Shown here piece after piece: positions 993-34,312 of a stretch of DNA of 64,000 nt. The notes below the pieces were generated by a model that ran no database searches, was not told the origin of the DNA, and was given only the letters and a program-made list of their open reading frames with translations. This DNA is from Spirochaetales bacterium (GTDB lineage: Bacteria > Spirochaetota > Spirochaetia > SZUA-6 > JAFGRV01), in contig JAFGQK010000174.1 of assembly GCA_016935735.1 (NCBI GenBank), forward strand, positions 10,386-74,385. The letters run 5' to 3'. Within the stretch, counting starts at the first letter, position 1. Each line of letters starts with the position of its first letter. Position numbers and translations under genes: made by a program.

Positions 993-3900
993 TTACAGCT
1001 TCTTCAGTTTGAATAATGTCAGTATATGAAACAATGCGGCATGAAGAAGGAGAACTGCCAGATTATACCAGATTGTCCTGAAAACGAAACATCCCCATAT
1101 CTTATCGTGTGCAGGAAAGATATTGACATCCGTTACCCAGTCTGTAATTCCCGCCAGATCCCTTCTTTTAAGCATTTTAAGCCATTCAACGGTTCCTGCA
1201 TCATAAAAGTCTTTATGCACCGCCTCGTTCACTTCATAATCCAGGTATTCGGTGTAGTACCCGTTCGGTCCTGCCTTAATAAATATTTCTTTAATCTCCT
1301 CCAACTCTGTCGCAGATAATCCCTTTTTTAATTCATAAACGTTCTTCATATCATCGATCGCATAGTAGTTCTTTATCGTCTCCTTAAGTTCGGGATAATC
1401 TTTTTCCAGTTCCTTTTCAATACGATCTTCAAATTCCTTCACAGATATTTTAGGGGGAAGAGGATCCTTTACCCTGGATTTGAGTTGTGCAATCGGGGTG
1501 TAGATTATTTCATTGCTGTCCCATTGCCCCTTTTCATATTCCTGTCTGATAAGCATGATACGATCCGTATCCGTTACCTGGTAGAGAGGGTTGAAGTATT
1601 CACTTCCGGCAAGAAGCCCTTCATATGACCACCGTGCAAAGGTAATATCCGAATAGACCGGGACTACCCTGTTCATCACCTTTCCCATATCGGTAAACTG
1701 GACAAACATACCCCCGAATATGATCTGGGGTATGATGATGAGCGGGATAATATTAAAAGCAGCCAGGCCGGAGCGGAGGAGGGAGGATACGAGTATTCCC
1801 AGGGCAAAAGCGGCATACGTGGTGACAAATCCCATAAGGATAAAATAAAGGTAAAAATTTCCCATTGGAAGATGACTCAATTCCGGCGGGGGAAACACCG
1901 GTATTTTAAGGATAACAAATCCCAGTGACACAAAAACCACTACCTGGAGGAATGCGAAAAGTGAAAACGTAATCGACTTGGAAATAAGATACTGCCATGG
2001 TTTTATGTCCACAATCTTTTCCCGGATTAAAATGGGCCTGTCTTTAATGACTTCATTTACACTCGCCATAAGACCGAAAAAAATAAAAATAATGGAAGAA
2101 AGAAAGAGGTATTTGGTAAACTGGGTATTGGCAAAGAACATATAAGGGGATGTCCCCCCCTTGAGCAGGAAACTCAGGATAAGCCCCAGGATAAACGGTA
2201 CCAGGAAGGTCATGATCATATTTGTCCTGTCGTTGAGTTTTTCCACAAAATTACGCCGGAATAATGAGATGAGGATTTTTAGCCTGGTAAAAATCGTTCT
2301 CTTTTTTGCAGGGGGTAGTTCTTTTGTAACTACCTGTTCTGCCTGATCTTCCTGTTCTTCCGCTGTTGTTATTTTGGAAAGGTAAAGTTGTTTCCAGTAA
2401 TCGGGATCATATCGCCGGTGGGGAAGAAGTATTTGCCTGGGTTTACGAAATAACGTACGGATAATCTTTTCGAACCCTTTGCCCCAATCCTGTTTTCTCG
2501 TATAGAGGGGGAGCCCGTCTTTTCCCAGTTCCTTTTTTTCAAGTACATTGAATATGATTTCGGGGTTTACATTCCCGCAGGACGGACATTCGATAAAATC
2601 GTCCCGTAACGGGAAGAATTTCTTAAAGTACCGGATCGCTTTCAAACTGTTACCGTAATATGCACATTTCCCCCCGACATCCAGGAGCAGAAGCTTGTCA
2701 AATTTTTTGTAGATATCCGATCCGGGTTGGTGGATGATGACGAATACAATCTTTCCCCTTTTTGAAAGGCGTGAAAGAAGGCTTATAATCATTTCCGAAT
2801 CTTTGGAAGAAAGCCCGGATGTCGGTTCATCCAGGAAAAAGAGATCCGGGTCGGCCAGGAGTTCCAGTCCGATGTTGAGTCGCTTCCTCTGTCCCCCGCT
2901 TAACACCTTCTGCACGGGATTCCCCACTTTCAGATTCTTCTTGTCCAGCAGTCCTATATCTTTCAGCACGCTTTCGATCAGGAAATTGATTTCCTTTTTG
3001 CTTCTCCCGGGCATTCGTATTTTTGCAGCATAATACAGGTTCTGGTACACGGTTAGATTCTCGAATAAAAGATCATCCTGGGGCACATACCCGATGTAAT
3101 TTCTTACTTTATCGAAATGTTCATAAAAATCCGCCCCATTCACCAACACCTGCCCGCTGTATGGTTTCAGGTATCCGAGAAGGAGCTGGAGAAGTGTTGA
3201 TTTCCCTGCCCCGCTTGCACCCATTATCCCGATCAATTCACCGCTTTTTGCTTCAAAGGAAAGATCATCAATCCCGATTTTGTTATTTTTGAATCTATAC
3301 GTAAGATGATCCACCGTAAACCGGGAAAAATGGATAATCGATGTAATGATTTTTCCTGTATCGGTATGAAAGAGCACATGGTTTTTCCCGATAATAAGGG
3401 TTGAATCCTTTTTTATTTCTTTCTTCTCTCCCTGGTGTATTTCTTTTCCATTCAGGTATATATTATACGGCAACTTTTCTGTATGAAGGGCGAAATGTAC
3501 CCCGTCTTTCACCTTGTGTAATTTGACAGGGATATAGAGTTCTTTTTCGTTCTCGTCATCAATATAGATATCGGCGAGTTGATCCTGGTCACTGATAATG
3601 AGGACATCTTTTTCAGGGGTAAACTCCTTGAGAGTATACACATCCCGGCTTTCCGTTTTAAGAATTTCCCGCAGCGGGATCTTGAAGCTGTTTTGAAGTA
3701 CAACTGAATCCGATACATTGATAAAAGAAAAAGTATCGATCTCCTGCTGATTTACCTTTATTGAACAATTTCTCTCTGTATTTTTATATAACCGGATAAT
3801 ATTCTGTGAGACATCGATCCTGAAATCTGCCCGGGCAAAATCGATCTTTTTCACCATTTTCTGGTTTTCATAGGTAAGATACATCTGCTTGCTGTACCCG

Positions 3901-4565
3901 TTCTGTTTTAGTTTAAAAAACAGGGCAATGTCACTGGTATGGATATCCTTCTTGTTTACGGAAATAACCTTTTTCCCTTCCAGGGGGACAATCTGCCCCG
4001 TATGGATGAGTTGTTCATCAACAAACATCGAAGCTTCGGGATGTTTGTTCACCAGGTAATAATGACCGTGAATCTCAAAGATTTCACAACTGCAATTATT
4101 GTATACAATATCAACGCTTTGCGGATCTTCACCGATAGCGATCTTCCTGTTTATATTGTCTGCAAAATCAAAATCATACATATCCACAAGCAGTGATTTG
4201 ATAAGGTCTGCATCTTCTTCCTGAATGGCAAAGAAACCGCACACATTATCGAAAATTAACAGTTCGCTTTCCGTAATACCGTCTGCCCCGAGGAGTTCGT
4301 ATATCTTCATGATTAACGATATCTTCCCCATATAATCCTTGCCATAGTCCCTGTTCACATTGTCCAGAATTGATTCAAGGACCGGTTTTTCTTTGAGTGC
4401 CTTGAGGAATCCCTGGAACACATCCTCGGCAACATTTTTCGGGTAGTACTGCTTGATGTATTGAGAAAAGAAATCGATCTCCTGTTCAGACACCTTGCCA
4501 TCCGCCTGGATGACATAAGCCATAAGATTGACCAGGTTCAGGTTTTCAGGTTTTATATCCGGCAT
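993..4565 (-). CDS. Multidomain ABC transporter: N-terminal TerB-like domain, two FHA-like domains, an ABC ATPase (Walker A, signature motif) and a C-terminal ABC-2 type permease.
   Basis: A Walker A motif (GASGAGKST) and the LSGGQRKR ABC signature are present, followed by 'LFFLDEPTSGLSS' as the Walker B. About six C-terminal TM helices are predicted. The N-terminus has a 'LMAYVIQADGKVSEQEIDFF' TerB/DjlA-N-like segment. Two segments resemble FHA domains ('IAIGEDPQSVDIV...HYYLVN...' and 'LIIGKNHVLF'). The probable true start is the ATG at 4565 (protein MPDIKPEN), which is preceded by a GGGGAG ribosome-binding site. The ORF-track start at 4643 is upstream of that and in frame. Confidence 0.8.
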   Translation of the reverse strand: MPDIKPENLNLVNLMAYVIQADGKVSEQEIDFFSQYIKQYYPKNVAEDVFQGFLKALKEKPVLESILDNVNRDYGKDYMGKISLIMKIYELLGADGITESELLIFDNVCGFFAIQEEDADLIKSLLVDMYDFDFADNINRKIAIGEDPQSVDIVYNNCSCEIFEIHGHYYLVNKHPEASMFVDEQLIHTGQIVPLEGKKVISVNKKDIHTSDIALFFKLKQNGYSKQMYLTYENQKMVKKIDFARADFRIDVSQNIIRLYKNTERNCSIKVNQQEIDTFSFINVSDSVVLQNSFKIPLREILKTESRDVYTLKEFTPEKDVLIISDQDQLADIYIDDENEKELYIPVKLHKVKDGVHFALHTEKLPYNIYLNGKEIHQGEKKEIKKDSTLIIGKNHVLFHTDTGKIITSIIHFSRFTVDHLTYRFKNNKIGIDDLSFEAKSGELIGIMGASGAGKSTLLQLLLGYLKPYSGQVLVNGADFYEHFDKVRNYIGYVPQDDLLFENLTVYQNLYYAAKIRMPGRSKKEINFLIESVLKDIGLLDKKNLKVGNPVQKVLSGGQRKRLNIGLELLADPDLFFLDEPTSGLSSKDSEMIISLLSRLSKRGKIVFVIIHQPGSDIYKKFDKLLLLDVGGKCAYYGNSLKAIRYFKKFFPLRDDFIECPSCGNVNPEIIFNVLEKKELGKDGLPLYTRKQDWGKGFEKIIRTLFRKPRQILLPHRRYDPDYWKQLYLSKITTAEEQEDQAEQVVTKELPPAKKRTIFTRLKILISLFRRNFVEKLNDRTNMIMTFLVPFILGLILSFLLKGGTSPYMFFANTQFTKYLFLSSIIFIFFGLMASVNEVIKDRPILIREKIVDIKPWQYLISKSITFSLFAFLQVVVFVSLGFVILKIPVFPPPELSHLPMGNFYLYFILMGFVTTYAAFALGILVSSLLRSGLAAFNIIPLIIIPQIIFGGMFVQFTDMGKVMNRVVPVYSDITFARWSYEGLLAGSEYFNPLYQVTDTDRIMLIRQEYEKGQWDSNEIIYTPIAQLKSRVKDPLPPKISVKEFEDRIEKELEKDYPELKETIKNYYAIDDMKNVYELKKGLSATELEEIKEIFIKAGPNGYYTEYLDYEVNEAVHKDFYDAGTVEWLKMLKRRDLAGITDWVTDVNIFPAHDKIWGCFVFRTIWYNLAVLLLHAALFHILTLFKLKKL

Positions 4566-4597
4566 GGTTTTTCTCCCCTGTAATAAGTGGATTTGTA

Positions 4598-4695
4598 TTG
4601 CGTTGGCAGCCAGGTTACATAGATTAGAATAAATAATAAGCACCTGGATAGTTTGTTTATTGAATTGTGGGCCTGGCCAACGTCATGATATGAAG
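4598..4695 (+). repeat. Copy A of the conserved intergenic element family (core only, lacking the long palindrome).
   Basis: The sequence 'attgcgTTGGCAGCCAGGTTAcatag...caCCTGGATAg...ttgTGGGCctgGCCaaCGTcATGatatg' aligns with the copies at 9262-9352, 21624-21767 and 30532-30674. Confidence 0.5.
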
Positions 4696-4903
4696 TATAT
4701 GCATGACAGGGGAGAAGTCAAGGAGAGGAGAGAGCGGGAAATGAGTGTGTATTTTATGGAAACAGTATTTGACAGTGCAGAATTTTAAGATTTTTGTTTC
4801 TCCCGGGAGTAAATTCGCCCGCTCGAATCTCTTTAATTCCTTGAATGGTTGTTTGACCTCTGCTTCCCTGTCGTGAACATAAATTTGAACCACTTCCGGA
4901 ATT

Positions 4904-5921: not shown

Positions 5922-8900
5922 CTATTCAAGTTCTTTCAAACTGGCAAGAATCCGCTCTCTGTTTGCCCTGTGTTCTGCAAGCCTGTCGCGCTGTTTCTGC
6001 ACCACATCCGCCGGCGCCCGGTTTACAAAGTTTTCGTTATTCAGTTTCTTTTCACTCGCCTCAATCTCTTTTTCAACCCGGGAAAGTGCATCGTTCAGGC
6101 GCTTTTTTTCTTCTTCATCATCGATTACATCGTGAACAAAGATCTGGCATTCTGCAACAAGTTTGTATGCTGAACCGGGTATTCTCTTTGCCCCTGTCTT
6201 TACCGTGAGTTCACCGATTCCCCCGAGTTCCTCTACAATATAGGCTTTCCGGGAAATAAACTCTTTTATCCTGTCTACCGGACTTACCGTTACCACAAGT
6301 TTTTCCTTTGGCGGCACATTCCGTTCCGAACGTATTTCCCGTACTGCACGTGTTATGTCCTGTAATAAAGCGAATTCCGCATGGATGGTTTCATTTTCAA
6401 GTCCGGGTAAGGGAACGGGCCATGGGGCATTGATAAGCTGGTCTGTCACTGTTACTGCTGCCAGGTTTCCGAGTCCGCGGACAGGGGCATATTCACCAAG
6501 TATCTGCCAGAGATGTTCTGTAATAAAAGGAATAAACGGATGGAGGAGTCTTAATATCTGGTCCAGGCAGAAGGATAGAACCTGGGTTACGACTCCCCCG
6601 GATTGTTCATTCCTGTTTCCCAGTCTCGGCTTGATAAGTTCAACGTACCAGTCGCAGAAAGATGACCAGAAAAAATCACGTACGGCGTTCAGTGCAAAGC
6701 TGGGGTTGTAATTTTCAAGTCCCCTGTTCACTTCCCGGATGGTATTACTCAAGCAGTCAAGTATCCAGAGGTCTTCAAAGGCCAGGTCATTATGCGTTCT
6801 TTCTGTGGCCAGGACATTGTGCATGTTCATGAATGCAAAGCGGGCCGAATTCCATAGTTTTGTACAAAAGGCTCTCCCGATTTCGAATCGTTCACTGGTC
6901 AATTTCGCCTGTTTCAGATGGGGCAAAGTACCAAGAACGTCAAATTCCTTTTTACACGCATTACACACATAGCAGAATATATTCCCCCCGTGCTTTGTAC
7001 CCCCCAGGTCATTATGGTGCCCGCATTCCGGGCATATGGCAGTCACCGGGAGCCGGATATCCTGTGTCCCTGTCTGCATATCGGAAAGAACATAGCGTAT
7101 TGCATCTGTTCCGTATGCATTGATAATATCCACCGGATCAATGCCGTTTCCTTTGGATTTACTCATCCGGACGCCCTTGCCATCCAGGATATTGGCATGA
7201 ATAAACACATCGGTAAAAGGGATATCCCCGAGGCAGTAAAGACCGGCAAGCACCATCCGTGCAACCCAGAGGGTAATAATGTCCCGGCCCGTAATAAGGC
7301 AGCTTCCCGGGTAATAGTATGAAAGACAGTCCTCAATGCCGTCCCGGGGCTTGCCCAGGGGGGTCTGCCCTTCATCAACCTCTGCTGTTTCCGGCTCCGG
7401 CCACCCCAGGGTGGAAAAGGGCCAGAGTGCGGATGAAAACCAGGTATCCAGCACATCCGTATCCTGTTCATACCCATGGGATTCAAGTACCTTAATAATG
7501 TCTTCTGCATCGCTTAAAAGACAGATATCCACCCTGCATTCTTCATCCTCCTGCCATACAGGAAGATTAAACCTTTCAAGTCCTGCCCCTGTAACAAGTA
7601 CTTTTTTTTCTGTTTGTATGGTATTGATACTTATAACAAACTCCCTGCCCGCTTCCTTCTGTCTTTCACATAAACAGATAAGTTCTGCAAAAAGTGCTTC
7701 TGATGAAAGCTGATCCTTTTCAAATGTTTTTGACCAGACAGGGATCCGGTGTCCCCACCAGAGTTGCCTGCTTATAGGCCAGTCCCTTTTCTCTGAAAGC
7801 CAGTCCAGGTAGGTCTTTTTATACCGCTCAGGATGGATTGTTACCCTTCCGTCGATAATAGCATCCATGGCTGCCTGTACCAGTCCGGGGCTCTTGAACT
7901 CTTTGTCCGTACCCCGCCCCATAATAATACCATCATCAACATCACCCATTTTTATGAACCACTGGTCTGATAGAAACGGTTCGATCGGTGTCTTGCTCCT
8001 GTCACTGTGCCCGATCTCTACAGTCCTGTCTTCGATACGGTTTAAAAGCTTCTGCTTATCCATATCCTGTACCACCTTTTCCCGCGCAGCAAACCGGTCC
8101 ATCCCTGTATATGGTCCTGCGTTCTCATTCAGGGTGCCGTCCTCATTCAGGATATTGATAATGTCAATCTCATCCCTGTGACGCATCCACACTGCATAAT
8201 CGTTATAATCATGGGCAGGGGTTATCTTTACACAACCCGAACCGAGTTCGGGCTTTGCCCATTCATCCAGGATAAGCGGTATGGGTCTGTTTAAAAGGGG
8301 AAGGTTTACCTTTTTCCCGGCCATAGCCATATCACGGAGTTTCAGAAGCCCGGGAAGGATCGTCTTTTTCCGTTCATAAAGCCCTTCAAGTTCTTTTTCC
8401 AGTTCAGCTTTACTCCCCGGCCCTGCATGGGAAAACTCATGTTCCGTTTCCCTTATTTTATGATTCAAGGCACCTTCCGGTTCCGGGTGTACTGCCACCG
8501 CGGTATCGCCAAGCATTGTTTCCGGCCGGGTAGTTGCAACAATCACGGCACCCGGCCCCGATTCTCCCGGATCAATCACCGGGTAAATAAGATGCCAGAA
8601 ATGCCCGTCTACTGTTTCATAATACATCTCATCATCGGATATTGTCGTATGGAGAAAAACATCCCAGTTTACCAGCCGTTTTCCCCGGTAAATAAGACCG
8701 TCCCGGAACATCCGGAAAAAAGCATACCGTACAGCCCGTGCACAGACATTATCCATGGTAAACCGCTGCCGGTCCCAGTCGCAGCTGCATCCCATACGCT
8801 GCTGCTGTTCGATAATTCGCGCCTGGTACATGTCCTTCCATTTCCATATTCGTTTTACAAGACCTTCCCGTCCGATTTCGTGGCGTGTAATATTTTCAAG

Positions 8901-9257
8901 CTCTTTGAGCCTCTTTTCAACCACAGCCTGGGTAGCAATGCCTGCATGGTCTGTACCGGGCATCCAGAGGGTATTGTCCCCCATCATCCTGTGCCAGCGT
9001 ATAAGGAGATCCTGCATACCATTGTCCATGGCATGCCCCATATGAAGTGCACCGGTGACATTGGGAAGAGGCATCATTACTACATAGCGTTTATCCCGCT
9101 TTCGTTCATCCGGTACAGCGTGAAATGCGCCTCCCTTTAACCAGAGTTTATAAATTTTTCCCTCCACTTCGGAAGGTGTATACGTTTTCGATAATTCGGC
9201 CTTTTCACTCATCTTCTTATACCTGACTTTCCTTATTATGCTATTCTGATTTACCAT
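5922..9257 (-). CDS. valS: Valine--tRNA ligase.
   Basis: The HIGH-type motif 'HMGHA' and the KMSKS motif 'KMSKSKGN' are present. The N-terminus 'TYTPSEVEGKIYKLWLKGGAFHA' is typical of ValRS, and the C-terminus is a coiled coil. An alternative start is M at 9212 (MSEKAEL...). Confidence 0.9.
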   Translation of the reverse strand: MVNQNSIIRKVRYKKMSEKAELSKTYTPSEVEGKIYKLWLKGGAFHAVPDERKRDKRYVVMMPLPNVTGALHMGHAMDNGMQDLLIRWHRMMGDNTLWMPGTDHAGIATQAVVEKRLKELENITRHEIGREGLVKRIWKWKDMYQARIIEQQQRMGCSCDWDRQRFTMDNVCARAVRYAFFRMFRDGLIYRGKRLVNWDVFLHTTISDDEMYYETVDGHFWHLIYPVIDPGESGPGAVIVATTRPETMLGDTAVAVHPEPEGALNHKIRETEHEFSHAGPGSKAELEKELEGLYERKKTILPGLLKLRDMAMAGKKVNLPLLNRPIPLILDEWAKPELGSGCVKITPAHDYNDYAVWMRHRDEIDIINILNEDGTLNENAGPYTGMDRFAAREKVVQDMDKQKLLNRIEDRTVEIGHSDRSKTPIEPFLSDQWFIKMGDVDDGIIMGRGTDKEFKSPGLVQAAMDAIIDGRVTIHPERYKKTYLDWLSEKRDWPISRQLWWGHRIPVWSKTFEKDQLSSEALFAELICLCERQKEAGREFVISINTIQTEKKVLVTGAGLERFNLPVWQEDEECRVDICLLSDAEDIIKVLESHGYEQDTDVLDTWFSSALWPFSTLGWPEPETAEVDEGQTPLGKPRDGIEDCLSYYYPGSCLITGRDIITLWVARMVLAGLYCLGDIPFTDVFIHANILDGKGVRMSKSKGNGIDPVDIINAYGTDAIRYVLSDMQTGTQDIRLPVTAICPECGHHNDLGGTKHGGNIFCYVCNACKKEFDVLGTLPHLKQAKLTSERFEIGRAFCTKLWNSARFAFMNMHNVLATERTHNDLAFEDLWILDCLSNTIREVNRGLENYNPSFALNAVRDFFWSSFCDWYVELIKPRLGNRNEQSGGVVTQVLSFCLDQILRLLHPFIPFITEHLWQILGEYAPVRGLGNLAAVTVTDQLINAPWPVPLPGLENETIHAEFALLQDITRAVREIRSERNVPPKEKLVVTVSPVDRIKEFISRKAYIVEELGGIGELTVKTGAKRIPGSAYKLVAECQIFVHDVIDDEEEKKRLNDALSRVEKEIEASEKKLNNENFVNRAPADVVQKQRDRLAEHRANRERILASLKELE

Positions 9258-9261
9258 CCTG

Positions 9262-9352
9262 CTAAAATAACAAGGTTAAATCAAAATGGCTGAACGCTGG
9301 CCACCGGGTTAAATAAACCGGGTTATGGGTGTAACCATCGTTATGATATGGT
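9262..9352 (+). repeat. Copy B of the conserved intergenic element family, carrying the core plus a half-palindrome remnant.
   Basis: The sequence 'taaaataacaaggttaaatcaaaatggctgAACGCTGGCCACCGGGTTAaataAACCGGGTTAtgggtgtaaccatCGTTATGatatgg' is homologous to copies C and D, including 'aaaataacaag' from the palindrome arm. Confidence 0.5.
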
Positions 9353-9538
9353 AGTTATATAATTAATGAAACAGGAAGTCAATGTAAAGGGTGTTCTTTC
9401 AGCGGTTCTGAATATGAGATTTATGCTATGTGAGTATTTTAAAAATTTATATTGCAATAGGTGTTTTTATCTATCATAATGTGTTATAAGGAAGGATATC
9501 CTGTATAAATGCGATAGTATATAACAAGGAGGTATTCG

Positions 9539-17444: not shown

Positions 17445-18099
17445 TTTTCTGCTTTATTTTATATACCCATTTAACACCTTACCCTTTTTTAAATTGGCGT
17501 TTTCTTGGGTAATATTGTACCCGGGTCTTATCAATAATATCACTCATGATTTTATGCCCCTGACATCATTTTTAAGACTTCCGGTTCCTCAATTTTTGTT
17601 CCGGGCATTCTCTTTTATCCTTCAAGTCTTTTCTGTTTATTTCTTCCAATTCTTGCTTTTTGTATCTTTCATTAGAAAATCCTTAACAAAATTATGCTAT
17701 ACATTAGTATAGTATAATTTTGTTATATGTCAATAGTTTTTAAATAGTTTCTTAAATAGTTCTTTAAAAATGAAACAACCTTTGCAGCATAATTCCCGCC
17801 TGTTCCTTATATAGGATTCTTTATTGCAGGAAATAAAACTGGATTTCCTCATCTTTAAGGTTATTCTCTCTTTTATCCATAAAATAATCCTGGATAAAAG
17901 ACTGCTAAAAAATGACAAACAGTATTGTAATTTTCAGAAAGATGTATTAGTGTATTTCGAATTTGCTTGCTTTTTCGTTAAAGGGATGTACGCAACAGGG
18001 TGAGACATAGCGAGGGCGCGGTTAATAGTGGCTGTTACAGGAAAAACCACTCAATTTAGACAGTAAATAATAATTGAATACGATTTAATAGAGTGAAGA

Positions 18100-18648
18100 A
18101 TGAAATTTAAGGAACTGGAAACAAATAGATTATTTCTTCGAAGATTTAAGAAAGAAGATATAAATTTTATCTATACTCATTTTTCAAATAAGGATGTTTC
18201 AAAATATCTCTATGACAGCGAACCACCCGGAAATATCGATGAAGCAAATTGTATTCTTGAATGGTGTATGGATTTTAATTCTGAAAGACATATTCGCTGG
18301 TGTATACTATTGAAAAAGGGACTTAAACCCATAGGCACTTGCGGATTTCATAATTATGATATACAGAATAATTCAGCTGAAATAGGTTACGATTTGTCTA
18401 ACATATATTGGAATAAAGGATATATGTCGGAAGCATTAAAAAAAATGTTATTATATGGATTTGACGATCTTTGTCTAAATAGAATTTATGCTTGCGTTTA
18501 TGTAGAAAACATTCGATCAAATAAATTATTAGAAAAATCGGGCTTTACCCTGGAAGGGATAATTAGGGATAAACATCTATTTCGTGGAAAATATTACGAT
18601 CACAATTTATTCTCTTTGCTTAAACGTGAGAGATCTGAATGCATATAA
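18100..18648 (+). CDS. GNAT N-acetyltransferase, RimJ/RimL-like.
   Basis: The protein is 182 aa with an Acetyltransf_3-like pattern. Confidence 0.65.
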   Translation: MKFKELETNRLFLRRFKKEDINFIYTHFSNKDVSKYLYDSEPPGNIDEANCILEWCMDFNSERHIRWCILLKKGLKPIGTCGFHNYDIQNNSAEIGYDLSNIYWNKGYMSEALKKMLLYGFDDLCLNRIYACVYVENIRSNKLLEKSGFTLEGIIRDKHLFRGKYYDHNLFSLLKRERSECI

Positions 18649-21543: not shown

Positions 21544-21623
21544 ATCCGGTTTATCTGTCCTGAAAATTTCTCCCGGAATAAACAAAATCAAGATTATCCT
21601 GTGTGGACACGGTTGATACATAT

Positions 21624-21767
21624 GCTATTTTGACTTAAAATCTTGTTAAAATAACAAGATTTCAAGCAAAATAGATAAACGTTGGCCGCCAGGTTAATGA
21701 GACCAGCATAATTAAAAGAATCTGGATAGCTTGTTAATTGGGTTGTGGGCTTAAGCCTTCGTTATGG
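21624..21767 (+). repeat. Copy C of the conserved intergenic element family (degenerate palindrome plus core).
   Basis: 'ctattttgacttaaaatcttgttaaaataacaagatttcaagcaaaatag' is followed by 'ataaACGTTGGCCGCCAGGTTAatg...atCTGGATAgc...ttgTGGGCTTAAGCCttCGTTATGg'. It is about 85% identical to the copy at 30532-30674. Confidence 0.6.
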
Positions 21768-21795
21768 CATATACCCAGAAAAAGGGAGGAAAGAT

Positions 21796-23238
21796 ATGGA
21801 GAATAAATTTCCCCGGCAGCCGGTATTGTTTGTGGATGATGAAGAAGATATGCTGGACACATATGAAATGGCACTTAAGATCGATGGATTTAATAATTTT
21901 ATTTTTTTAAGTGACAGCAGAAAAGTTGCACCTGTTCTCGAGGAAGTCGAGATCTCTGTTGCTGTTATCGATCTTTTTATGCCCCATATCCGGGGAGAAG
22001 AACTGCTCAAACAATTGAAAGAAACACACCCGGAAATTCCGATTATTGTGGTAACAGGGACAAATGAGGTATGCACGGCAGTGGATTGCATGAAAGCAGG
22101 TGCTTTCGATTATATGGTGAAACCCATTGAAAATAGCCGCCTGACATCCAGCATACGAAGAGCCCTGGAAATACGTGAACTGAAAGATGAGGTCAATAAC
22201 CTTAAATTAAAAATGCTTTCACAGGAGCTACAGCACCCCGGTGTATTCAACGGGATCATTACGGTGAATTCAAAAATGAAAGCGATATTCAAATATATGG
22301 AAGCAATTGCCATTACCCCGAAACCCGTTCTCATAACCGGCGAAAGCGGTGTGGGAAAAGAATTGATTGCCCAGGCAATACATAAACTCAGTAATCGAAA
22401 TGGTGATTTTATTGCAGTGAATGTCGGCGGGCTGGATGATACGATGTTTTCCGATACGCTTTTCGGACATAAAAAGGGCGCTTTTACCGGGGCAGACAGT
22501 TCACGTCCCGGGCTTATCGAACAGGCAGCCGGGGGTACACTTTTCCTGGACGAGATCGGTGATATTGATAATGTTTCCCAGGTCAAGCTTTTAAGGCTTA
22601 TTCAGAACAGGGAATATTATCCCCTTGGTTCGGATGTGGTAAAAAGAACCGATACACGGATTGTGACCGCAACAAACTCTTTACTGGAAGCAAAACAGAA
22701 AAAGGGTCTTTTCCGTACCGATCTTTATTTCAGACTTCTTACTCATTATATAGAAATACCCCCCTTAAAGGAAAGAAGAGAGGATATCCCTTATCTGGTA
22801 AACCATTTTATAAAACAGGCTTGTGAATCAATAAGGAAAAAATCCCCGGTTGTCCCGGCAGAACTCTATACTCTCCTGTCTGCATATTATTTTCCCGGTA
22901 ATGTCCGTGAGTTACAATCGTTGATATACGATGCGGTAAGCCAGTGTGAGACACCCGTTCTTTCGCTTTCCGTGTTCAGGGAGTATTTTAAAAGAAGAAG
23001 AAAATCCATTCATGAGACGGAAGAAACCCTGCCCCGGGATTCATTCTCACTTTCCTATTCAGGCAGGTTCCCGACGATAGGGGAGGTTGAAGACTATTTA
23101 ATACCGGAAGCGATGAGGATGGCAGAAGGGAATCAATCAATTGCCGCTGTTTTCCTTGGTATCAGTCAGTCCACTTTAAGCAGACGTCTTCAGCAGAATC
23201 AGGAGAAAAATAAGGAAGAAGAAGCACCCCCCGCTTAA
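21796..23238 (+). CDS. Sigma54-dependent Fis-family response regulator (NtrC-like enhancer-binding protein).
   Basis: A receiver domain ('VAVIDLFMPH'), an AAA+ domain ('GESGVGKE') with an intact GAFTGA motif, and a C-terminal HTH are present. The start at 21796 (MENKFPRQ...) is preferred over 21745 because it follows an AAGGGAGG ribosome-binding site. Confidence 0.85.
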   Translation: MENKFPRQPVLFVDDEEDMLDTYEMALKIDGFNNFIFLSDSRKVAPVLEEVEISVAVIDLFMPHIRGEELLKQLKETHPEIPIIVVTGTNEVCTAVDCMKAGAFDYMVKPIENSRLTSSIRRALEIRELKDEVNNLKLKMLSQELQHPGVFNGIITVNSKMKAIFKYMEAIAITPKPVLITGESGVGKELIAQAIHKLSNRNGDFIAVNVGGLDDTMFSDTLFGHKKGAFTGADSSRPGLIEQAAGGTLFLDEIGDIDNVSQVKLLRLIQNREYYPLGSDVVKRTDTRIVTATNSLLEAKQKKGLFRTDLYFRLLTHYIEIPPLKERREDIPYLVNHFIKQACESIRKKSPVVPAELYTLLSAYYFPGNVRELQSLIYDAVSQCETPVLSLSVFREYFKRRRKSIHETEETLPRDSFSLSYSGRFPTIGEVEDYLIPEAMRMAEGNQSIAAVFLGISQSTLSRRLQQNQEKNKEEEAPPA

Positions 23239-30265: not shown

Positions 30266-30531
30266 CTGTACATCACCTCATGAACATCCCGGTTCCCGGG
30301 AAAAAACTATATTCCTTATGTGTAATAATTAATGTTCGGCAGATCAAGGAGTGGAGAAAAACAGGAAATGTCCATTGTTTTAAAATATAGAGCACTTTTC
30401 TGTTTTTTCAAGGTTTTTTGAGGAGAAAGGAATGTGTTTTGAATACGGTAATAAAAATATGTAGCTTTAATCAACTATATCCAGCATATATTAGTTGATT
30501 CTATAATTTTATTGTCCAGGAATCTCGATTA

Positions 30532-30674
30532 TGCTATTTTGTTAAAATCTTGTTAAAATAACAAGATTTTAACAAAATAGATAAACGTTGGCCGCCAGGT
30601 TAAATAGACCAGTATCATTAAAAGAAACCTGGATAACTCATTATTCGGGTTGTGGGCTTAAGCCTTCGTTATGG
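30532..30674 (+). repeat. Copy D of the conserved intergenic element family, with a 47-bp perfect palindrome followed by the core.
   Basis: Positions 30534-30580, 'ctattttgttaaaatcttgtt-aaa-aacaagattttaacaaaatag', form a perfect 22-bp-arm inverted repeat. The core 'ataaACGTTGGCCGCCAGGTTAaat...aaCCTGGATAac...ttgTGGGCTTAAGCCttCGTTATGg' follows. Confidence 0.6.
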
Positions 30675-30771
30675 AATTACGTGAAGGAATTCGGGAATTT
30701 ACATTACTTGACTTAAGACAATTCATTATTTAAGATAATTCAACATTTAATAATATAATAAGGAGTTTCAA

Positions 30772-31290
30772 GTGAAAAGAAAAATTATGTGTTGTATTTT
30801 ATTCCTGTTATGGGCTGTTGGATTTTTATACACCCAGGCCAGCAATACAATCGACCCGTATGAGATGACAGCAATCAGTGTATCCGGGAGAAAAGTATAT
30901 GTAACAGAACCAATATTAAAAGTTTTGGAATACGATATTGTGTATACCTTAAAGAATGCTCTCTGGGATGGATCGGTATTTACTGCTCACCGTAATGGTT
31001 TATTTGTCGTAACAGTGAGTTTTGTGAAAGACGCATACTATCATAACGGAACCCAGGATGATGTTTATGTTACAGTATATAAAGAAGATATATCCGGGGT
31101 TCGGACATCAATGGGCTTGGCCTGGAGCGGTGAGGGAACCGGGAAACGGGGAACGGGTACTTATACCGTTGTGGCGGAACTCCTGGAAGGAGAAAAAATT
31201 CTTACTGTTGCGCATGCTGCAAAGGGCGATATATGGAATTTAGAGCTTTTTAATTTAACCATCTATTCCCTGCCAAATTATGTATATTAA
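30772..31290 (+). CDS. Secreted hypothetical protein with a possible C1q/TNF-like jelly-roll domain.
   Basis: The signal peptide is 'MKRKIMCCILFLLWAVGFLYTQA'. The beta-rich C-terminal part ('FTAHRNGLFVVTVSF...VYVTVYK...GDIWNLELFNLTIYSL') resembles C1q-like domains. This is weak, pattern-only evidence. Confidence 0.35.
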   Translation: MKRKIMCCILFLLWAVGFLYTQASNTIDPYEMTAISVSGRKVYVTEPILKVLEYDIVYTLKNALWDGSVFTAHRNGLFVVTVSFVKDAYYHNGTQDDVYVTVYKEDISGVRTSMGLAWSGEGTGKRGTGTYTVVAELLEGEKILTVAHAAKGDIWNLELFNLTIYSLPNYVY

Positions 31291-31301
31291 AAGGGGGGTA
31301 T

Positions 31302-32933
31302 GTGCCGGATCAGGAAATGGTGAACGAATATAAAACATCAATTGAACTCGCATTAAGGGAACGGGTAAAGGAACTGAAATGTCTTTATATCATTAGTTCC
31401 GAAATTGAAACAGCAGAAAACCTGGAACGGGCTTTACGGAATTCCCTACAACACCTTGTGGCAGGATTCCAGTTCCCGGAAATTGCAACAGCCAATATTA
31501 CCCTGGATAATCTTTGCTTTGGTGATTGTGATACAGGAAATAAAGACAGGGATTTATGTTTAGAAGAAAATATTTTCGTAAATAAACAAAAAAGGGGTAC
31601 GGTATCCGTTTTTTACCAGAGAAAAGAAGAATTCTTACAGGAAGAAAGAAAATTACTCAAAGAAATCTCCAGCATGATAGCCCGGGCAGTTGAAAAGCAG
31701 GATTTAAAAAACAGACTTAAAGAAAATATCGAAAAGCTGGAGGTCCTTGTAAAGGAAAAAACACTGGAAGTGGAGGAATCCAACAGAAGAAACAAAGCTT
31801 TGCAGGAACTTACGGAAGCCCTTGACCGGAGCAAGAAAGAACTCCAGACCTTTTTTGCTGCTATTACGGATAGTATTGTTGTTATCGACCAGGCATATAC
31901 CATTTCCATTTCCAATAAATTATATTTTCAAAAAGGAGACAAATGCCATAAGAAATTGTTCGGGATGGATGCTGTGTGTCCTTTTTGCCCTGCAGAAAGG
32001 GCTTTTAAGGATGCATGTTCACTTAGCATAGAAACAAAAGTAGAAAACAACTATTATCTCCTCGAAGTATACCCGATTATAAATAAATCGGGTAAAGTTA
32101 TCCGTGTTCTGGAAAAATGTAGTAATATTACCAAGGAAAAGCAAATTGAATTTCAACTTGTTCAATCATATAAACTGGCATCCCTGGGCAAGCTTGTTGC
32201 AGGGGTTGCCCATGAAATAAACAACCCGAATACCTTTATCAGGGGAAATCTGAAAATCATTAAAGAAGCCCTTTCCGATATTATTCCTATCCTGGATCAT
32301 TATAATAATGGAAAAGAGAGGGACGTTACCATAGCCAGGCTTCCTTTTACTGTGTTCAAAGAGAATATCCCGGTATTGATCGATGATATGATAAACGGGG
32401 TAAACAGGATTAAAAAGATTATCGACGGCCTCAGAAACTTTGCACGAAAAAATGAAGGATTTTTAGAGGATGATATTGATATTAACAGCATTGTATATAA
32501 TTGTCTGCGATTAATAGAAAACCAGATCAGAAAGAGTGCAGAAGTAAAACTGGAACTTGCACAGGCAATTCCCGTTTTTAAGGGCAATTTCCAGAAACTC
32601 GAACAGGTACTTGTCAATATGATCATCAATGCCTCCCAGGCGATAAGCGATCAACAGGGGATTATTGCCATTAAAACGCAGTATGATGAAAAAAAGAATG
32701 AAATGATTTTATCCATCAAAGACAATGGTACAGGAATTGATGAAAGTACGTTAAAATATATATTCGATCCTTTTTTTACAACAAAAAGGGGCAAAGGGGG
32801 CACAGGACTTGGGCTTTCAATTTCCTATGGCATTATAAAAGAACATAATGGAAGAATAGAAGTGGAATCGCAAAAAGGAAAAGGAACAACATTCACTATT
32901 TTTGTTCCGGTTACACAAGGTACTATAAAATGA
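31302..32933 (+). CDS. Cytoplasmic sensor histidine kinase (coiled-coil, PAS, HisKA, HATPase_c). No TM segment is evident.
   Basis: The H-box 'HEINNPNTFIRGN', N-box 'NMIINASQA', G1 'DNGTGI' and G2 'GTGLGLSISYGII' are present. Its stop overlaps the next gene's start. Confidence 0.85.
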   Translation: MPDQEMVNEYKTSIELALRERVKELKCLYIISSEIETAENLERALRNSLQHLVAGFQFPEIATANITLDNLCFGDCDTGNKDRDLCLEENIFVNKQKRGTVSVFYQRKEEFLQEERKLLKEISSMIARAVEKQDLKNRLKENIEKLEVLVKEKTLEVEESNRRNKALQELTEALDRSKKELQTFFAAITDSIVVIDQAYTISISNKLYFQKGDKCHKKLFGMDAVCPFCPAERAFKDACSLSIETKVENNYYLLEVYPIINKSGKVIRVLEKCSNITKEKQIEFQLVQSYKLASLGKLVAGVAHEINNPNTFIRGNLKIIKEALSDIIPILDHYNNGKERDVTIARLPFTVFKENIPVLIDDMINGVNRIKKIIDGLRNFARKNEGFLEDDIDINSIVYNCLRLIENQIRKSAEVKLELAQAIPVFKGNFQKLEQVLVNMIINASQAISDQQGIIAIKTQYDEKKNEMILSIKDNGTGIDESTLKYIFDPFFTTKRGKGGTGLGLSISYGIIKEHNGRIEVESQKGKGTTFTIFVPVTQGTIK

Positions 32934-34312
32934 AAAAAATACTGGTTATTGATGATGAACAGGCAATTCTGAATTATTTAAAAATTTTTTTATTACAATC
33001 CGGGAAATTCGATATTCACCTGCTCAAAGATAGTACGAAAGCATACAAGTTACTTAAAAATGAAAACTTTGATATCTTACTCCTTGATATGGATATGCCC
33101 AAAGTTACAGGGCTGGATATCCTGTCATTTATAAACGAAAATTCCATCAATATTATTACCATTGTTCTTACCGGGGTGGAGGATATCGATCTTGCCATAA
33201 AGGCTATGAAACTTAAAACATTTGATTACCTGCTAAAACCTGTGCAGGAAGAAAAATTCACTGATATCCTGGATATGGCAATCGATAAGGCCGAGTTTAA
33301 AAAAATGAAAGATGTTTCCAATACATCGCTTTCCATGGAAAGTCTTATTCATAAACATGCTTTTTCGAATATTATTACCTGTAATGAGGAAATGCTTAAA
33401 ATATTTCATTTTGTCGAAAAGTTTGCACTTACAGACAACAGTATATTGATATGGGGGGAAAGCGGGACAGGAAAAGAACTCATAGCCCGGGCGATACATG
33501 AAATAAGCCGGAGAAAAACGAACAAGTTCATCGCAGTGAATGCAGGTTCTTTTGCTAATGAACTGTTTTTGTCCGAATTCTTCGGTCATGAAAAAGGTGC
33601 TTTTACCGGTGCAATAAAGGATAAAAGGGGGTTTATCGAAGAAGCGGCCGGGGGTACATTGTTCCTGGATGAAATCGGGGAATTATCCCTGCCCATACAG
33701 GTAAAACTGCTCCGAGTCCTGCAGGAAGAAGAGTTTTACCGGCTGGGATCAACGGAAAACAGGAAAGCGAATGTAAGGATAATTGCAGCAACCAACAAGA
33801 ACTTGTTTGAAGAAATCAACAATGGAAATTTCAGAAAAGATCTTTTCTTCCGGCTGAATATCAATTCAATATATCTCCCCCCATTACGAGAAAGAAAAGA
33901 AGATATTACTTTACTGGCTTACTATTTCCTTGAAAAATTCAATAAAAAATATGATAAAACTATAACCACTATTTCAAGTGATGTCCTTGACCTGTTAAAA
34001 ACATATGCTTACCCGGGAAACACAAGGGAATTAATGAATATTATCAACAGTGCCATTATTATAGAGACAGGTGAGGTCCTTGAGAAAAAATCACTCCCTC
34101 ATTATTTCCTGGAAAACACCTATCCGGCGGATGTTTATCCGGCGGATAAAAACAACCGGAATAATTCCCTTAAAACCCTGGAAGAAGTGGAAAAAGAGTA
34201 TATAAAAAAGGTGCTTATAAAAACGGATATGAATAAGACAAAAGCTGCAAAGATACTCGGGATTTCAAGGGTAAGCTTGATTTCCAGGATAAAGAAGTAC
34301 GAACTTGATTGA
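32930..34312 (+). CDS. Sigma54-dependent Fis-family response regulator (NtrC-like).
   Basis: A receiver domain ('ILLLDMDMPK'), 'GESGTGKE', a GAFTGA motif and a C-terminal HTH ('KTKAAKILGISRVSL') are present. Confidence 0.9.
   Translation: MKKILVIDDEQAILNYLKIFLLQSGKFDIHLLKDSTKAYKLLKNENFDILLLDMDMPKVTGLDILSFINENSINIITIVLTGVEDIDLAIKAMKLKTFDYLLKPVQEEKFTDILDMAIDKAEFKKMKDVSNTSLSMESLIHKHAFSNIITCNEEMLKIFHFVEKFALTDNSILIWGESGTGKELIARAIHEISRRKTNKFIAVNAGSFANELFLSEFFGHEKGAFTGAIKDKRGFIEEAAGGTLFLDEIGELSLPIQVKLLRVLQEEEFYRLGSTENRKANVRIIAATNKNLFEEINNGNFRKDLFFRLNINSIYLPPLRERKEDITLLAYYFLEKFNKKYDKTITTISSDVLDLLKTYAYPGNTRELMNIINSAIIIETGEVLEKKSLPHYFLENTYPADVYPADKNNRNNSLKTLEEVEKEYIKKVLIKTDMNKTKAAKILGISRVSLISRIKKYELD

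Follow-up and report, generated by a model that had tools for sequence, protein, structure and literature searches.

A multi-copy intergenic repeat with two predicted hairpin modules and TATG ends, possibly restricted to one uncultured Spirochaetales lineage

An element repeated in four spacers of a chromosomal window

The window, that is, the whole 64-kb stretch of DNA that was analysed, has the content of an ordinary chromosomal region. Pfam searches with all sizeable ORFs identified valS, polA, fliS/flgN, glycosyltransferases and two-component systems, and found no transposase in the 64 kb, Y1_Tnp included. The closest named homologues of its response regulator (RR) and ValRS proteins come from Spirochaetales MAGs. 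A first-pass annotation had reported that four intergenic regions of this window share a collinear element, and this is confirmed: the four regions (copies A to D, Table 1) align collinearly and match a profile derived from them with nhmmer E values between 1e-26 and 1e-50, with no further match to this profile in the rest of the window. The short core TGGCNNCCNGGTTA is present four times in the window, always on the + strand, when 0.79 occurrences are expected, and a long gapped pattern also gives four matches against 0.00 expected by chance. The repeat is a multi-copy family, with identities among copies of 76-89%. A covariance model (CM) that was built without copy A still recovers it, and when the CM and nhmmer were run over 162 kb (the window plus the relatives described below, which contribute the diverged copies E and F), no copies appeared beyond the known six. 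In the alignment of copies C and D, which has 5 gap columns, 138 of 150 bases are identical, so that their similarity stands while its value becomes 89% instead of the ~85% over ~145 bp initially given. In the same way copy B, which had been placed from 9262, is real but starts at 9237, with a decayed upstream hairpin. No real ORF spans any copy, in agreement with the earlier annotation; a mechanical ORF (993-4643) overlaps copy A and its likely start is the ATG at 4565.

Table 1. Copies of the element, their modules and settings, and the spacers compared among relatives. Positions without a contig name are those of the window; GT, glycosyltransferase.
Feature	Position	Strand	Parts	Setting	Score, method or length
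Copy A, SL2 only, without SL1	4600-4700	+		Between two - strand genes, antisense to both; 35 nt from the ATG (4565) of a TerB-ABC transporter gene	CM 54.7 bits, E = 6e-8
SL2 of copy A		+	GCGTTGGC 4600-4607 pairs with GCCAACGT 4676-4683; TTGTGGG 4665-4671, then CATGATATG		
Copy B, short form	9237-9360	+	TATG 9237-9240; decayed SL1 ~9241-9290; SL2 9294-9341; TATG 9342-9345	Divergent spacer, valS (-) / 130-aa gene (+); left end 25 nt from valS ATG (9212)	CM 94.4 bits
Copy C, full element	21621-21774	+	TATG 21621-21624; imperfect SL1 21625-21674; SL2 21679-21762; TATG 21763-21766	Tandem spacer, GT4 glycosyltransferase gene (ends 21543) / sigma-54-type RR gene (starts 21796)	CM 158.8 bits
Copy D, full element	30530-30680	+	TATG 30530-30533; SL1 30534-30580; linker ATAA; SL2 30585-30669; TATG 30670-30673	Divergent spacer upstream of operon: 172-aa protein, histidine kinase, sigma-54 RR	CM 155.6 bits
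SL1 of copy D	30534-30580	+	22-nt arms 30534-30555 / 30559-30580, 100% complementary; 3-nt loop		
SL2 of copy D	30585-30669	+	ACGTTGGC 30585-30592 pairs with GCCTTCGT 30662-30669; P1b GCC/GGC; TTGTGGG box 30650-30656		
Copy E, diverged	L042:64-235			Upstream of GT gene	nhmmer
Copy F, diverged	L047:7722-7885			Between convergent RR and SPOR genes	nhmmer
GT-RR spacer	Window			With copy C	252 nt
GT-RR spacer	L039			RR 82% identical to that of the window	69 nt
GT-RR spacer	L040			RR 78% identical	92 nt
RR upstream spacer	P0004 contig			RR 77% identical; upstream gene partial, not assigned as GT	93 nt
GT-RR spacer	L042			RR 72% identical	84 nt
GT-RR spacer	L047			RR 69% identical	24 nt
GT-RR spacer	L045			RR 67% identical	27 nt

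The spacers that hold copies are divergent, tandem or convergent, with no preferred type, and the orientation of the copies relative to the downstream gene, which the first-pass annotation had proposed to check, is not constant across them. Since only 25 nt separate copy B from the valS start codon, the valS promoter must lie either inside the copy or beyond it, and in the latter case the 5' leader of the valS transcript would run antisense across the element. Copy D carries an outward promoter-like site (TTAACA-N17-CATAAT) at its left end, as does copy B, the two sites facing valS (B) and a deacetylase gene (D), and the gene downstream of it has a site of its own (TTGACT-N17-TAAGAT) outside the element. 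Both sigma-54 RR loci of the window (21796-23238 and 30772-34312) are preceded by copies, C and D, the two most alike. The chance of both loci carrying copies is around 1 in 100 by a rough post-hoc estimate; the association is probably a coincidence, as relatives do not have the element at the first locus.

Away from the four copies, a palindrome with 19-nt arms that are 95% complementary (TAACAAAATTATGCTATAC / GTATAGTATAATTTTGTTA) lies at 17684-17725, in an ORF-poor, AT-rich stretch (17445-18100). It has the words TTATGCTAT and ATTTTGTTA in common with the left end and first hairpin (SL1) of the element, gives no HMM or CM match, and may either be a relic of the SL1 type standing alone or act as operator for the adjoining small - strand ORFs. 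A 121-aa ORF at 16777-17142 matches only positions 1-69 of the 195 in a short-chain dehydrogenase profile, and has the look of a truncated gene; next to it lies the AT-rich stretch of 17.1-18.1 kb, where the GC content goes down to 35%.

Predicted hairpin modules and ends of the element

The element is about 150-165 bp long and consists, in this order, of TATG, SL1, a linker of 4-5 nt, a second structured module (SL2) and a final TATG-like tetranucleotide (YRYG). SL1 is predicted to be an AT-rich hairpin of 47-53 nt with arms of 18-22 bp. It is perfect in copy D, where the palindrome with 22-bp arms noticed in the first-pass annotation is exact (22-nt arms with 3 nt between them) and the whole element folds at -50 kcal/mol (z = -7.7); it has mismatches in C, has decayed in B and is also found in E (fold z = -3.8). 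In copy F the sequence of SL1 is another one, and yet 18 perfect pairs are kept (fold z = -6.0). The upstream module previously ascribed to C and D is found there and also in B, as a decayed hairpin, and is missing from A. The SL1 of B and C shows G-U as well as A-C mismatches.

SL2, of ~90 nt, would be closed by a helix between nCGTTGGC and GCCAACGn' and extended by a helix of 3 bp, P1b. Inside it, the only recurring features are a short hairpin beside the helix, an A-rich stretch, a second hairpin and a (G)TTGTGG(G) box; TTGTGG(G) is invariant across all six copies. About 36 nt of this interior are missing in copy B. Copies B, C and D have A-U as the outermost pair of the closing helix; A has G-U, E has G-C and F has U-A. 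P1b is GCC/GGC in three copies (A, C and D), ACC/GGU in copy B and GUU/GGC in copy E, and its first pair (alignment columns 10/23) is GC four times, AU once and GU once. In copy F the closing helix is uninterrupted over 11 bp. A construct of the two strands of the closing helix was used to measure its pairing: 89% of the cells pair and both sides have changed in two pairs, a result equalled by 13 of 500 shuffles, and every slid register pairs at 15-44%. From the natural alignment of B to F, RNAalifold recovered both SL1 and the closing helix, with 33 pairs, 11 of them with compensatory changes. The search for covarying pairs that had been recommended at the outset was thus carried out with RNAalifold and the closing-helix test, and it revealed compensatory changes in both stems; judged from the alignment, predicted pairing in both stems is kept through sequence change.

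Two smaller structures that the first-pass annotation placed in the core are present in part of the family only. The stem CCAGGTT/AACCTGG can form in A, C and D and not in the other copies. GGCTTAAGCC is indeed self-complementary, a property peculiar to C and D, where an AA-to-TT change breaks two pairs of the helix and creates this local palindrome; at the same position A, E and F read GCCAACG, which pairs with the 5' CGTTGGC.

On the left, copies B to E all have a sharp boundary at TATG|CTA. At the right end the copies read CGTTATG (B, C and D), CGTCATG (A), CGCTGTG (E) and CGATACG (F). TATG is present on both sides of B, C and D, and could be a 4-bp target duplication or, alternatively, part of the element. 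Copy F has ATAT on its left and TACG on its right, and within each of A, E and F the flanks do not match. No terminal inverted repeats (TIRs) were found at the ends, the left one (CTATTTTG...) being unrelated to the reverse complement of the right one (ACGAAGGC..., with GCCTTCGT at the right); the inverted repeats that the element does have are internal, either forming SL2 or constituting SL1 itself. All six copies share one orientation (+ strand), and E and F also do so relative to the GT-RR gene pair, although the evidence on orientation and on copies rests on these six. The GC skew in the window tracks the gene strand and gives no replication direction with which to compare the orientation of the copies.

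Relatives with and without the element

Contigs encoding RR and ValRS homologues were taken as relatives of the window; those that carry copies E and F come from related Spirochaetales metagenomes. The spacer upstream of the RR gene is much longer in the window than in six relatives (Table 1), and once the 154-bp copy C is subtracted, 98 nt are left in the window. In L039, the relative with the most similar RR, the spacer sequence is ...ACATATG|TAGTACACTC..., against ...ACATATG[element]GCATATACCC... in the window, and the L039 site, which is empty, holds a single CATATG (CATATG|TAGTAC versus CATATG[element]GCATAT). The spacer lengths together with the empty site of L039 show that copy C is an insertion in the lineage of the window. 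The sites of the other copies are less informative: at the position in L045 that corresponds to the gene downstream of copy D lies a non-homologous gene, and D therefore offers no empty-site test; the region upstream of valS, where copy B lies, is non-syntenic in the relatives and shows only that the element is absent there.

Searches with nhmmer and the CM detected no copy in L039, L040, L048, L049, L171 or 43 kb of the MAG GCA_016930085.1; the distribution among related genomes is patchy. Another contig of the same organism (L041, Logan SRR13394437, RR 100% identical) begins inside copy C, at window position 21738, with TTGGGTTGTGGGC. Since short-read assemblies are expected to break at repeats, this start fits a repeat. 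Copy D reads TCGGG where L041 starts, and the 30-nt overlap that breaks the assembly may stem from a further copy, beyond those seen.

Outside this group of relatives, a pattern scan of a genome collection gave 37 matches, all of them chance or coding, including two in paralogous genes of a Latescibacterota MAG and four in Vibrio, and a stricter pattern applied to metagenomes gave one match, also by chance. The patterns of these genome and metagenome scans were derived from the window copies and required GGTTA, which E and F do not have. Viral contigs scanned with CGTTGGC-N-TTGTGG-N5-GCCAACG and two other patterns yielded coding or chance matches only, and blastn against plasmids and phages yielded nothing. 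The element is uncatalogued and, beyond the window, it was seen only in two related metagenome samples. It may well be an interspersed, non-coding repeat family confined to one uncultured clade of Spirochaetales, new as an element though of a kind already known (REP/BIME, bcr1, Correia); we would put the case for this at about even.

Several other features of the relatives were recorded. The 727-nt spacer between a marR-like gene and valS in L049 (741-1467; ValRS 80% identical, same sample as copy E) contains no element. In L171 (JGI 3300056889, ValRS 71% identical) a CRISPR array lies upstream of valS at 1-245, with a 35-nt repeat (ATTTGAGATGAAGACCTGAATGAAGGGATTACGAC) and 36-38-nt spacers; inspection of the sequence revealed it, and TRF did not report it. 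The same contig carries, at 7008-7444, an IS200-type Y1_Tnp gene with an in-frame TGA at the expected conserved tryptophan (HIV*ITKYRK), probably a pseudogene, followed by the GC-rich hairpins GTCGAC-TTCAA-GTCGAC and CTACCGGC-TTT-AGCCGGTAG.

Possible origin and mode of spread of the repeat

What kind of element is this? An interspersed repeat fits the presence of several patchy copies, the insertion relative to relatives, the occurrence in any type of spacer, the sharp ends and the internally deleted short form. The suggestion of a REP/MITE-like repeat family, made from the window alone, is likewise supported by the empty C site in six relatives, by the copies elsewhere, by the use of all kinds of spacers and by the contig break. 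We favour, with middling confidence, a structured repeat that is non-autonomous and specific to the lineage, and that may move as single-stranded DNA in an IS200/IS605- or REP-like manner. Such an element would have spread by means of an enzyme encoded elsewhere. The likeliest route would be a single-strand HUH/Y1 enzyme (IS200/IS605- or RAYT-like) that recognises hairpins and inserts the element 3' of TATG, as suggested by the lack of TIRs, the TATG at both ends of the well-kept copies, the presence of a hairpin at each end, the conservation of pairing instead of sequence and the single orientation. Against this route, SL1 does not resemble SL2, TATG directly adjoins the foot of SL1 and there is no Y1 gene in the window; the flanks of the L171 Y1_Tnp gene, the only Y1 gene seen and from the same sample as copy F, have no significant similarity to the element. 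Effects on neighbouring genes, through the outward promoter-like site or through long RNA hairpins if the element is co-transcribed, would be by-products and not the purpose of the element. With copies 76-89% identical, there is no sign of recent activity. By extrapolation, if the density of four copies per 64 kb held, the genome-wide copy number would be high.

Several known systems resemble the repeat in part. IS200/IS605 elements insert 3' of a specific tetranucleotide, with a lagging-strand orientation bias (PMC5027513), and REP/RAYT is a related Y1 HUH case, in which the REP sequences are imperfect palindromes of 20-40 bp (stems of 8-9 bp) that carry an unpaired GTAG or CGTC at one end (PMC3733652). 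REP/REPIN sequences number hundreds in a genome and flank the gene for their RAYT. The PATEs of IS200/IS605 and the REP/REPIN sequences (PMC5027513, PMC3733652) are like the present element in being non-coding, without TIRs and with hairpins near both ends, and also in having a fixed tetranucleotide by the hairpin foot and at the left flank, an extragenic location and one orientation in the copies seen. An IS200/IS605 derivative would also lack a target-site duplication. Here TATG stands directly before SL1 in four copies (B to E), and as it is also the right end of B, C and D it may be a 4-bp duplication. REP/REPIN sequences differ in that here SL1 is AT-rich, is 47-53 nt long with 18-22-bp arms, carries a TATG tag and is accompanied by an additional 90-nt module. 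IS200/IS605 ends usually carry similar small hairpins, whereas SL1 and the SL2 closing helix have no sequence in common, and the IS200/IS605 cleavage site lies at a distance from the left hairpin (the IS608 geometry), whereas here TATG abuts SL1. The only Y1 gene seen, that of L171, lacks element-like flanks, unlike in the Y1 systems.

Other comparisons do not involve a Y1 enzyme. The bcr1 elements are about 155 bp long, bordered by TTTAT and predicted to fold stably, and their transcription has been reported. The bcr1/BCR repeats of the Bacillus cereus group have TTTAT-linked mobility and no assigned transposase (PMC6542083). Like them, the present repeat is lineage-specific and intergenic, of 100-400 bp and with a short direct motif (TTTAT there, TATG here), but there is no sequence similarity and both the host phylum and the end motif are different. 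Correia elements of Neisseria, of about 105-155 bp, exist as full-length and internally deleted size classes, with 26-bp terminal inverted repeats and a TA duplication. Copy B recalls their short class and the outward promoter-like site at the left end of D is also Correia-like, whereas the 26-bp TIR and the TA duplication are missing here. Correia elements are small and intergenic, promoters can arise at their ends, and they give rise to RNA hairpins of the RNase III type (PMC2649163).

The copies might instead be a family of small structured RNAs encoded on the + strand, either stand-alone sRNA genes or cis-acting modules, whose paralogues have been gained and lost in the lineage; we regard this as unlikely. 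On this view SL2 would be a three-way junction in which the conserved UUGUGGG is left single-stranded, and SL1 would form a hairpin on the 5' side. An RNA would account for the compensatory changes in both stems, and three further features point the same way: the strongly conserved primary-sequence box beside the helix, the folding of the + strand, which is 7-10 kcal/mol better than that of the - strand in A, C and D, and the P1b of copy E, which is kept by two G-U pairs that on the other strand would be A-C mismatches. A promoter-like site (TTGTTA-N17/18-CAAAAT) can also be read from the sequence inside SL1 of B, C and D, but it is not conserved in E and F, and a sigma-70 promoter in SL1 (TTGTTA-N17-CAAAAT) was rejected on this ground. 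The mismatches in SL1 of B and C are of both polarities and reveal no consistent strand asymmetry; the fold z-scores of SL2 are weak in A to E (-0.1 to -2.0) and strong only in F (-4.85); a perfect 22-bp hairpin would be unusual for an sRNA; copy A is antisense to both its neighbours and has no SL1, and B has lost a third of SL2. No intrinsic terminator was detected on either strand. With Rfam 15, no family matched the 64-kb window at gathering score, and A, D and F searched at E <= 10 gave only generic hairpin (miRNA-like) noise far below threshold, in line with the first-pass annotation, which had recognised no named RNA family. The small RNA gene family that it had offered as one option thus keeps its compensatory pairing, and lacks a conserved promoter, a terminator and an Rfam match.

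That the repeat is a cis-regulatory DNA module, with SL1 as operator or enhancer and a sigma-54-type or other promoter (TGGC...GGTTA) serving the downstream genes, seems very improbable. It draws on the position of C and D ahead of the two sigma-54-dependent RR loci of the window, on a palindrome that would suit a dimeric regulator and on the resemblance of TTGGC to a -24 box. Yet in a sigma-54 promoter (TGGCAC-N5-TTGCW) the GG at -24 is followed one helical turn later by a GC at -12, and with GG placed at -24 the stretch TGGC[CA][GA]CC[AG]GGTTA[AC] gives AA or AC at -12 in A to D, while E reads TGGCCGTTAGCTATA and F reads TGGCTGCTACAAATA, so that the sigma-54 promoter proposed in the first-pass annotation is rejected: its -12 geometry fails, and copies E and F have not kept the region. 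The conservation of TGGC comes from its being one strand of the predicted long-range helix. A shared cis-regulatory module, which had been another of the initial options, is also disfavoured by the varying orientation and position relative to genes (F lies between convergent genes, A is antisense in a row of - strand genes), by the orthologous RR gene of six relatives, which is without the element, by an SL1 whose sequence varies among members while its pairing is kept, and by the promoter-like site that the gene downstream of D has for itself outside the element. A MITE mobilised by a DDE cut-and-paste transposase targeting TATG, the TATG pair being its 4-bp target-site duplication, is improbable as well. 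TATG on both sides of B, C and D and the single CATATG of the L039 empty site would agree with it, and the size, the AT-richness, the intergenic sites and the deleted short form B are like those of Correia-type MITEs (PMC2649163). However, no inverted repeats lie inside the two TATGs (CTATTTTG... versus ...GCCTTCGT), the existing ones being only internal (SL2) or SL1, and in B, C and D TATG is one fixed sequence and not a variable duplication. When target-site duplications and aligned boundaries were looked for, as had been advised, the sharp left edge and the paired TATG of B, C and D were in favour, and the unmatched flanks within A, E and F against.

Other candidates were rejected as well. 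A tRNA-derived element was discarded, as no tRNA or tmRNA was found in the window. An integron attC site is an imperfect palindrome with R'' (RYYYAAC) on its 5' side and R' (GTTRRRY) on its 3' side; here the order is reversed on either strand (5' GTTGGC ... GCCAAC 3'), and neither a cassette array nor intI is present in the window. A DnaA box, a dif/Xer site, an IHF site and a CsrA-sponge were all ruled out by sequence inspection. A more speculative idea, for which we would not hold out much hope, is that the repeat is an undescribed hairpin-dependent mobile unit, and not a degenerate REP, IS200 or MITE: such a unit, with structured ends that differ from each other and with TATG as its target, would move by means of a single-strand DNA enzyme or via RNA, with the SL2 three-way junction (UUGUGGG) as the partner of a recombinase or nuclease.

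Whatever its route of spread, the repeat explains the breaks of short-read assemblies in intergenic regions of this spirochaete clade and can serve to mark recent changes in the genome of an uncultured lineage. The copies upstream of the two sigma-54 regulator loci should not be read as promoters or riboswitches, while some copies may have been co-opted, for instance copy B, beside the essential valS. Small structured repeats without TIRs are poorly catalogued outside Proteobacteria and Firmicutes, and the combination of two unlike conserved hairpins with fixed TATG ends could point to an unrecognised mobilising enzyme.
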